From assembly GCF_028641065.1 (NCBI RefSeq), contig NC_073379.1, positions 74,338,001-74,402,000 of the forward strand: a DNA stretch of 64,000 nucleotides. Reading direction: 5' to 3'. The notes below the pieces were generated by a model. It saw only the letters and a program-made list of their open reading frames with translations, did not search any database and was not told the origin of the DNA. The position numbers and the translations under genes are program-made. The stretch is from Leucoraja erinacea (taxonomy: Eukaryota). Below are positions 14,613 to 56,697 of this stretch, in pieces (within the stretch, counting starts at the first letter, position 1; each line of letters opens with the position of its first letter).

Positions 14613-15068
14613 TATTAAATCTGTCAATCTCCGTCTTAAAAATATCCATTGACTTGGCCTTTATAGCCATGTGTGGCAATGAATTCCACAGATTCACCAC
14701 CCTCTGACTAAAGAAATTCTTCCTCATCTCCTTTTTAAAGCTATGTCCTTTTATTCTGAGGCTATGGCTTCTGGTCCTAGATTCTCCCACTAGTGGAAAC
14801 ATCCTCTCCACATCCAGAAGTACCAGCACTATCAAGTGGAATTATATATTGAAAGTACCAATTCACCAATATTGTGCATCATATGAGCAGCACAACATAC
14901 CACATTACCCCAACACATCTCTTCGCTGTTACATCACATTACATCATGCTGTTATCAGGCAACTGAACCATCCTACCATAACCAGAGAGCAGTCCTGAAC
15001 TACTATCTACCTAATCGGGGACTCTCGGACTATCTTTGATCGGAGTTTACTCGCTTTATTTGCGCTAA

Positions 15069-15117
15069 GGGGAGGGAGATTGCAACCTTCACGTGCCCTG
15101 TTTCAACGAATGCAATC
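15069..15117 (+). ncRNA. HDV-like (CPEB3-type) self-cleaving ribozyme, degenerate copy
   Basis: P1 GGGGAGG; P2 GATTGCA pairs perfectly with TGCAATC; P3 ACC; L3 TTCACGT (same as CPEB3); P1' remnant GCCCT; J1/4 GT; tiny P4; J4/2 CGAA. P3' is absent (about 5 nt missing). Confidence 0.6.
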
Positions 15118-15203
15118 AACCTGGCGTGCACAATCAAATAAGATCAAATAGAACAAGTTGTCCTAAAACTTTAGGCTGTGCACACCATACGCAAGAGGAA
15201 GAC
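15069..15203 (+). mobile_element. ~135-bp non-autonomous retroposon (Vingi/RTE-type ends) headed by an HDV/CPEB3-like ribozyme
   Basis: TSD ttgcgctaa (15060-15068) and ttgcactaa (15204-15212). 3' end ccatacgcaagaggaaga. The 5' end folds as a double-pseudoknot ribozyme remnant. Confidence 0.7.
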
Positions 15204-15794
15204 TTGCACTAAATGTTATTCCCTTATCATGTACCTGTGCACTGCAAATGGCACAATTGTAATCATGTAATGTCATGTAATTATCATGTAGTGGATGGTT
15301 AGCACACACAAAAGCTTTTCACTGTACCTCGACAATAAACTAAACTGAATAATCATGAGTGCAACACACTTCATCGCCAACAAAATACATCCCCTGGTCA
15401 CAGGGAGTGATAACTATATCCAAGTTTTTGTGCAATGGCACCACCAAGTCTTATCACTTGGTAATGATGCACACAAGGATCTAGAAGTGACAATTAGTAA
15501 CAACGTTTTAAACTAGATCTTCCAAGTTAAACATATCAGGAAAATATATATTTTTTAAGAAAAAAGGTTTGATACGATTATAGGGAACTATATGGTCATA
15601 GGCACAACATTATACATAGGTATAATACATTATTCTCTGTAGGCAGAGTCTTGAAATAAACATGACATAAGCCACAGATGCACCATCTGATAGAGTCCTC
15701 TGCATCATACACCCATGTCCTCTGTGGGAATCTGCTGGGGTTATTCTTCCAGATGAAGGCATGTGCAATGGACTGGGCCATCAAGGAGGCTCAC

Positions 15795-55628: not shown

Positions 55629-56697
55629 ACCTTAAAAGATAAGGAGTAGAATATTTGCTTTCATATGTCCACATGTTTCTAATCAATCTTTACCTTACTA
55701 TGAAGCCTTACCTTGACTATCACAGTTTGCTTGCCAGCAACTTATCCCACTTACTTAAACTATCTAGACTTGATGGCTGATAGCAACTTCCAATTATTAT
55801 TTTGTTTCTGTTATCATCATTGAATTTTTACCAATTTGATTCGGCAATTTCTTATTGCAATATTTTCCATGTATTGCAAGTTCAGGGCAGGTGTTGGCCA
55901 TGTAGTCCCCTGCTGCATCTCACCACAGTTTGTTGAGACTTAATGTGCATTTGTGAAATAAATACAAGACCTCCAGTGACAGAGTTGGTTGAGTGCAATG
56001 CAATATTTACATGTCAGGTGGAAATCCTAAAGTGTGATGGTTGGATCTTCAACCTGTGTCAGACACCACCAATACACAACAGGTCTATTCAATCTCGGTA
56101 TTCGGACTGTTTTGGGAATGTTAAAACATAGGAACAGAAAGGTTTTCTTAGTTTAAACCCGCCTCTTCATGAGTGAGAATTCAGGCAGCCAGTTACGTTC
56201 CAGTTCAGTTTAGTTTATTGTCACGTGTACCAAGGTACTCTGAGAGGATTTTATTGCCTGGCAGGTGATGGAATTTTACTTGGGAGGGATTGCAGAGCAT
56301 GGCTGTTCAAGCTGTGGTGAGAGGTTTGAGTTTAGTTTACTGTCACATGTACTGAGGAACGGTAAAAAGGTTTTGTTGAGTGGTAACCAGTCAGCAGAAA
56401 GACAACACATGATTACAATCGAGCCATCCACAGTGTATAGATTCACGATAAAAGGAATAAAGTGAATAACTTTTGTGCAAGATAAAGTCCAGTAAAGTCA
56501 GAACAAAGATAATTCCGAGGTTCTCCAATGAGGTAGATAATGTTGGGTCCTCGCAGCACCAGGCGTTGTTGCGGTAGGTCTTCTGGTCCAAGGAGTCAGA
56601 GAATGGACAGATCTGAGAGGAGATGAAGAAGGGCATAGATAAAGTAAGAAATGTTGCTGTCAGAGTGCTGTCAGAGATTTTGTTGACATCCTTCCTA

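Follow-up and report, generated by a model that had tools for sequence, protein, structure and literature searches.

The 64,000-nucleotide stretch of DNA analyzed here, referred to as the window, contains at positions 15069–15203 a short sequence bracketed by near-identical 9-bp repeats, and the question raised by this locus is how so small an insert could come to begin exactly at the first base of an HDV-like ribozyme. An initial annotation had described it as a SINE-like retroposon headed by a nearly P4-less relative of the CPEB3 ribozyme. The pieces named there are all present, with G1 at 15069, P2 paired at seven of seven positions, the L3 loop, T15099 and C15107 in their places, and target-site duplications (TSDs) whose two sides match at eight of nine bases. 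The insertion and its duplication are real, because a paralogous copy of the surrounding host repeat at window positions 56336–56560 on the minus strand lacks the insert and holds the target only once in a pairwise alignment. The gap between the filled and empty sites was opened by pairwise affine alignment and not by MAFFT. The parts of the insertion are collected in Table 1.

Table 1 Parts of the insertion and its surroundings, in window coordinates
Feature	Position	Strand	Basis or remark
Left target-site duplication	15060..15068	+	TSD search, empty paralogous site
HDV-type ribozyme, 49 nt here versus 54 nt in intact copies	15069..15117	+	Predicted inactive here
P1 5′ strand	15069..15075	+	Begins with G15069, the element's first base and predicted site of cleavage; G1·U wobble with T15099
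P2 5′ strand (15078–84), P3 5′ strand (15085–87), L3 loop (15088–94)	15078..15094	+	
P1′ remnant (15095–99), P1.1 G and U (15100–01), 5-nt P4 substitute (15102–06)	15095..15106	+	
J4/2 with predicted catalytic C15107, then P2 3′ strand (15111–17)	15107..15117	+	
LINE 5′-end-derived part	15069..15140	+	blastn to LINE copy L153, 79% over 70 nt; compared with L220 and L197
11-bp helix, 5′ arm	15122..15132	+	Pairs with 15177–15187; closes the non-ribozyme half
Linker	15141..15162	+	Contains a short direct repeat plus one side of a 6–7 bp hairpin
LINE 3′-end-derived part	15163..15203	+	Last three codons, stop 15172–74, 3′ UTR, (AAG)n tail 15193–15203
Right target-site duplication	15204..15212	+	
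Older dispersed host repeat, outside the element, extent approximate	14901..15350	+	Both flanks match one contiguous stretch, window 56326–56539 minus

Taken alone, the copy in the window is not recognized as a ribozyme because five bases have been lost after 15094, which removes the P3′ strand and two bases of P1′, and because P1 carries the substitution T5>A. It has no ribozyme match in Rfam, does not pass the HDV structure descriptor, and its folding energy is no better than that of shuffled sequences (z −0.15). The deletion of about 5 nt that had been suspected in this copy turned out to be exact, as the 29 best other copies carry five extra bases after L3, mostly GGTCC. The HDV-type fold is a prediction established through the family, not through the window copy, whose own ribozyme is predicted to be inactive.

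The family is large. In the 2.19-Gb genome, which one protein match places with the skate-like cartilaginous fishes, 2,454 candidates were collected, and exact matches to a 25-base motif from the 3′ end number at least 2,118 genome-wide, with none in the control. As copies differ by 6.5% from the column majority, the true copy number is higher, probably on the order of 10,000. The consensus is ~140 nt long, non-coding, and ends in an (AAG)n tail, and its copies are dispersed. A near-identical sequence occurs in 20 sequencing runs from 10 organisms and 12 studies, and the family may already be catalogued in Repbase or Dfam.

To avoid a bias toward complete 5′ ends, the first 90 of the 2,118 3′-end matches along one chromosome were used as an unbiased sample. 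Seventy-three of these copies start at the same G (nt 1–4), three start at nt 5–15, 12 are truncated or rearranged, and two belong to a longer LINE, so that the short form accounts for 88 of the 90 sampled 3′ ends. Columns 27–31 read G, G, T, C, and C in 66–69 of the 73 full-length copies, confirming that the family restores the GGT and CC predicted to follow TTCACGT. TSDs scoring at least 8 flank 58 of the 73 full-length copies and measure 8–15 bp (mode 11–12 bp), whereas at shifted control positions any TSD was found in 53 of 354 cases and one scoring at least 8 in only 8 of 354. The edge of the duplication in these 58 copies falls at G1 or one base inside in 39 and 1–4 bases before G1 in 18. 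The bases interposed between TSD and G1 in the latter 18 are mostly pyrimidines and may reflect either a target preference or untemplated addition; over all 73 copies, the base at position −1 is T in 49 and G in 2. One short copy, L316, has an inverted ribozyme half.

The hallmarks of HDV-like ribozymes are a G·U or purine–pyrimidine pair at position 1, C22 and G25 in L3, and a catalytic C within C-N-R-A before P2′. This list agrees with the Rfam alignments, and across the 73 copies the corresponding core features are present at columns 1, 22, 25, 36, 37, 44, 46, and 47. The intact fold totals 54 nt and comprises a 7-bp P1 with G1·U36, a 2-nt J1/2, a 7-bp P2, a 3-bp P3, a 7-nt L3, a one-pair P1.1, a 5-nt segment where P4 would lie, and the catalytic C44. 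Of the 73 unbiased copies, 19 retain the core and every one of the 17 pairs; in these, P1, P1.1, P2, and P3 can form the HDV double pseudoknot, and the frequent variants at nt 8, 32, 42, and 45 all leave the fold intact. The description of the ribozyme as nearly P4-less holds, since the 5 nt between the G-U and the catalytic C leave room for no more than a single pair closing a loop of 4 nt.

Covariance models and energy-based folding gave weak signals. The intact copy L015 aligned exactly to the nearest HDV model, RF02682, over nt 1–54 at a score of 14.4 bits (E 1.9) against a cut-off of 44, and the CPEB3 model RF00622, with its cut-off of 35 bits, gave no hit to L015 or to the window copy. 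Folding of the whole element was weak (z −0.8 and −1.2) with a method that ignores pseudoknots and is uninformative for this one. The 3′ half of L015 does fold better than its shuffles (z −4.0), into an 11-bp helix with a small inner hairpin, and this helix joins the 5′-derived and 3′-derived halves of the element. Relative to the LINE described below, the changes A to G at nt 61 and C to T at nt 59 each extend the helix, which grows from 8 to 11 bp. At nt 59, 33 of the 73 copies have T and 31 have C, and because the CpG partner of this base rarely mutates, the change looks like a helix-favoring subfamily change.

The initial annotation had also pointed to an autonomous LINE as a possible sharer of both ends, and such a LINE was found, ~3 kb long with a single ORF. 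A route through the Exo_endo_phos_2 domain was tried and rejected, as the best 30 loci nearly all belong to one two-ORF family unrelated to the element; this family (L091–L120) is young, with copies ~96–99% identical and several open frames of ~1,200 aa. The search that succeeded used a degenerate motif, which we take to represent the C-terminal zinc knuckle, and returned 1,240 matches in several families against one in the control. One knuckle-bearing family ends in the last ~40 nt of the element at 85–97% identity, including the last codons and the stop. A single LINE copy, L153, holds element nt 8–77 and nt 100–140 at its opposite ends, ~3.0 kb apart after subtraction of a 0.4-kb insert. 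Overall, the element and the LINE share nt ~1–80 plus the last ~40 nt, and a search of five LINE copies for the source of the ~20-nt linker gave no convincing match. Among the LINE 5′-region loci, 17 of 30 reach into the same ribozyme, and two keep the whole first P1 strand. The ribozyme of the LINE differs from that of the element in ways neutral to the fold, with U-A for U·G in P1 and CUAA for CGAA; only one of nine partner-LINE 5′ ends passed the HDV descriptor.

The LINE ORF begins ~50 nt past the ribozyme and encodes an APE, an RT, and a C-terminal CCHC knuckle. Pfam recovered the APE, the RT, and a weak zf-RVT, and detected no RNase H in the 363-aa frame spanning the RT to the knuckle, while a comparison with protein clusters returned RT clusters only. 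The nearest database relatives are single-ORF proteins of ~1,000 aa (45–51%), compared with ~29% for the two-ORF element of the same genome. A single ORF with APE, RT, and a C-terminal knuckle, no RNase H, and a length of ~3 kb is the Vingi build according to PMC13708176, and we classify the partner LINE as putatively Vingi-like, a label that rests on architecture. All LINE copies inspected are broken and mostly 82–91% alike, matching the age of the short family. Given the 6.5% divergence of the short copies and no intact LINE among those inspected, the short element and its partner LINE both give the impression of old families that are no longer active. Many partner-LINE copies (L159, L163, L154, L158, L179, L207, L220, and L223) are 5′-inverted, and the inverted piece extends up to G1 or close to it, which is what copying of the RNA from a second primer as far as a fixed 5′ end would produce.

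Because both its 5′ and its 3′ end come from a LINE, the element is best described from its sequence as a bipartite non-autonomous LINE (short internally deleted element, SIDE) and not as a classical SINE. It shares its 5′ end, and likewise its 3′ end and tail, with the partner LINE, has multiplied with TSDs in its own right, and encodes no protein. The term SINE-like thus stands insofar as it denotes a short mobile retroposon, but the class is the SIDE, a kind already described.

The same fold recurs at the 5′ ends of other LINEs. Upstream of the APE region, the descriptor gave 14 matches over 70 loci, compared with none in 350 shuffles or in the 70 reverse strands, and the matches sit where the copies of a family stop resembling each other, a position not selected by the descriptor. 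At this 5′ boundary, six other LINE families carry the fold, built from stems of different sequence. Once the descriptor was relaxed, the topology was common to seven LINE families and the short element, and over eight representatives 16 of the 17 pairs, including P1.1, change on both sides (0 of 204 shuffles), a count that is partly circular because the descriptor itself selects pairing. The P4 interval is 18–43 nt in the six sister families versus 5 nt in the element. One sister family has U-A for C-G at P1.1, and another begins with A and has a G at both P1.1 positions.

The genome contains no fewer than eight coexisting Vingi-like LINE families (L237–L292). A second tiny family (L384–L397), mostly 160–200 nt long, also has a P4-less ribozyme, which scores 33–39 bits on RF00622, together with an (AAG)n tail, duplications of 7–13 bp around most copies, and a helix that links one half to the other. 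In addition, the locus L269 (1019–3598, minus strand) contains an 860-aa Vingi-like ORF that is 86–87% alike to two bony-fish proteins and 95% to part of a skate record, compared with ~50% for all other relatives, and horizontal transfer between fish lineages is a possible explanation.

Together with the RNA evidence given below, these observations make it highly probable, in our judgment, that the element is a ~140-nt retroposon whose two ends both derive from a Vingi-like LINE, that its predicted P4-less ribozyme cuts before G1, and that the LINE protein mobilizes it. A longer transcript would read into an element copy, and the ribozyme would then cut 5′ of G1 and release an RNA that retains the whole ribozyme. 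The LINE protein would bind the shared 3′ end, probably aided by the helix between the two halves. Target-primed reverse transcription, which is established LINE biology, would start from the (AAG)n tail and yield full-length inserts with duplications of 8–15 bp.

Cleavage at this site should leave RNA ends at G1, and such ends were found in raw RNA reads, sampled at 1–5% of each run, from organism D, which holds the family and is not known to be the species of the window. Two single-cell runs gave 1,650 and 1,368 reads with a loose end before G1 (consensus agreement 0.80 and 0.76), and the consensus of these ends is a 30-base adapter, presumably the template-switch oligo, whose final three G are additional to the four of the element. 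Two bulk runs from another study show the same adapter ending at lower agreement. As estimated from the agreement value, G1 is the stopping point of ~60% of the sense reads that cover the 5′ end; no sharp molecule starts were tabulated in the organism D runs. The tail also shows loose ends resembling poly(A), which were not counted as proof that the RNA is polyadenylated, because the A-rich tail is itself a possible priming site for oligo-dT.

The reads also carry information on the fold. Comparing sense with antisense reads for changes present at 2% or more, with loci pooled, reads not independent, and classes set after the counts were seen, we obtained a median ratio of 0.41 for fold-breaking substitutions (11 of 12 below 1) and of 1.15 for tolerated substitutions (6 of 13 below 1). 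The change of the catalytic C44 to T appears in 3.0% of sense versus 6.3% of antisense reads, whereas the P2-breaking G49>A runs contrary with a ratio of 2.2. CpG decay is depleted in sense reads at C24, G25, and C44 (0.51, 0.52, and 0.47) and undepleted in the loop (0.88 and 0.98), as is decay to a wobble pair. This contrast speaks against a simple surplus of young copies as its cause. The RNA ends and the depletion of fold-breaking changes support cleavage in vivo.

The strongest competing explanation, though an unlikely one, is that an internal promoter sets the uniform 5′ end, with transcription starting at G1, or at G2 if the cap is copied into a G, and that the ribozyme fold is a legacy of the LINE and dispensable or secondary. 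Template switching favors capped ends, and the number of G's would be no different for a capped RNA that begins at G2, yet there is no sign of a copied cap in the genome, where a G precedes G1 in only 2 of 73 copies. Sense reads do outnumber antisense reads by ~3 to 1 in the single-cell runs, but the substitutions depleted among them follow pairing: G6>A, which breaks a pair, has a ratio of 0.28, while C31>T in its partner, which leaves a wobble, has a ratio of 1.30, a pattern that fits RNA structure and not a DNA motif. The contrast in CpG decay between C24, G25, and C44 on one side and the loop on the other speaks against a promoter as well. The near-loss of P4, which could slow the ribozyme, favors the promoter reading; against it, sister family 1 starts with A, at the base predicted by the fold. 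A precedent for a combined function exists in Pr77 of L1Tc and NARTc, described as both promoter and ribozyme in PMC3383444 and PMC8256844, and a dual arrangement of this kind here would be a blend of the promoter explanation and cleavage by the ribozyme.

It is considerably less probable that the adapter at G1 is a library artifact, produced by strand invasion or by stalling of the reverse transcriptase at the run of G, and that the ribozyme had decayed before the family spread. The element's four G, preceded by T in 49 of 73 copies, do resemble the adapter end, but invasion would overlay the adapter G's on G1–G3, whereas the reads add three G to the four, and the internal T-GGG at nt 5–8 is absent from the best-supported loose ends. 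Early decay would agree with the small number of fully intact copies (19 of 73), although the subfamily variants at nt 8, 32, 42, and 45 preserve the fold. Finally, a classical SINE with a tRNA, 5S, or 7SL head, an RNA polymerase III promoter, and a LINE tail would share the short length, lack of coding capacity, high copy number, TSDs, and LINE-derived 3′ end, but is almost certainly the wrong description, as a tRNA search and Rfam found no tRNA gene or other small-RNA head in the element and the head is the LINE's own 5′ end.

With cleavage by a LINE-derived ribozyme as the preferred reading, the relation to the CPEB3 ribozyme can be considered. Of the kinship suggested by the initial annotation, it is the sister families that reach the RF00622 cut-off, whereas the element itself stays below 35 bits. 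Seven of the 20 sister loci scanned score above 35 bits. Genome-wide, at least 48 places, with loci L253, L261, L272, L274, and L355–L376 among them, lie above the cut-off (59 candidates scored), the best at 64.9 bits, while 14 control genomes gave none. A Vingi-like ORF lies within 1.5 kb downstream of 13 of the best 30 matches, and the remaining matches mostly have the same downstream leader, cut short. Moreover, an old family (L369, L372, L381, L382, and L402) is nearly equal to the CPEB3 model at its 5′ end. By hand count, L369 agrees at 43 of the first 46 CPEB3 positions and L372 at 50 of 55, including both P4 strands; the sequence of the P4 stem is free in the other sister families, yet the old family matches it. 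L369 (1512–1760) runs into a Vingi-like 3′ end, 90% alike to L134 over 59 nt, and L381 and L382 adjoin an inverted Vingi-like RT region.

The CPEB3 ribozyme has been reported only from mammals, and sister Vingi-like families nevertheless begin with matches of up to 65 bits. On this ground we think it likely that the CPEB3 ribozyme arose by domestication of a Vingi-type 5′ end, the direction being read from the spread of the fold across families. The broader proposal seems to us just as likely, namely that the 5′ ends of vertebrate Vingi elements are processed by CPEB3-type ribozymes, the most reduced of them 54 nt long, P4-less, and active in vivo, and that the intronic CPEB3 ribozyme of mammals was domesticated from one such element. 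If true, these families give the CPEB3 ribozyme its missing outgroup and mobile source, and its origin is now directly testable. A literature search of incomplete coverage found neither a Vingi–ribozyme link, which the initial annotation had treated as established, nor a CPEB3–Vingi link, although both could already be published; domestication of intronic ribozymes has been proposed in general terms only (PMC7761336).

Several known systems resemble the element. The NARTc, RIME, and SIDER elements of trypanosomatids are likewise internally deleted, join the 5′ HDV-like ribozyme of a LINE to its 3′ end, and have an Ingi-related parent; here the host is a vertebrate, the parent lacks RNase H, and the copies are dispersed in their thousands (PMC4035085). 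Co-transcriptional cleavage has been shown for NARTco and several SIDERs, and compared with the 77 nt of Pr77 the ribozyme of the element takes 54 nt, with P4 cut to 5 nt (PMC4035085). The R2 SIDE and R2/R1 SIDE of Drosophila also combine a 5′ ribozyme with a LINE 3′ end, and they are released from a co-transcript and spread by target-primed reverse transcription in trans (PMC3414825). While R2 SIDEs are rare and site-specific to rDNA, the element is dispersed, has an APE-type parent, and makes duplications of 8–15 bp (PMC3414825). Bipartite Vingi and RTE elements (Vingi-1_EE derivatives, Bov-A, and RTESINE) have the same two-ended build (PMC5786205). In the part of that source available, bipartite elements are reported only from RTE, Ingi, Vingi, and R2, and Vingi is not among the six clades credited with ribozymes (PMC5786205), whereas here seven Vingi-like families pass the ribozyme descriptor and an eighth matches the Rfam CPEB3 model.

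The element type is therefore known from trypanosomes and flies, and what is added is a vertebrate case at high copy number and a minimal ribozyme with a clear job. In minimal (P4-less) HDV-like and theta ribozymes, P4 is essentially gone and the core is short, as in the element; ~99% of them come from gut phage, whereas the heads described here belong to a vertebrate retroposon and its parent LINE, and the origin and role of the non-theta minimal HDV-like forms are described as open (PMC10879173). The CPEB3 ribozyme (RF00622) shares with the element its topology, L3, the G-U after P1, and J4/2, while the element has other P1, P2, and P3 sequences and almost no P4 (PMC8233481). It occurs as one conserved copy within an intron (PMC8233481), whereas the element and the sister families are mobile repeats. 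The reads indicate that intact cores yield RNAs starting at G1, and the thousands of naturally mutated copies offer a ready in vivo mutational scan. Work is under way to engineer Vingi elements as RNA-only gene-insertion tools (PMC13708176), and their short natural derivatives display minimal cis ends.
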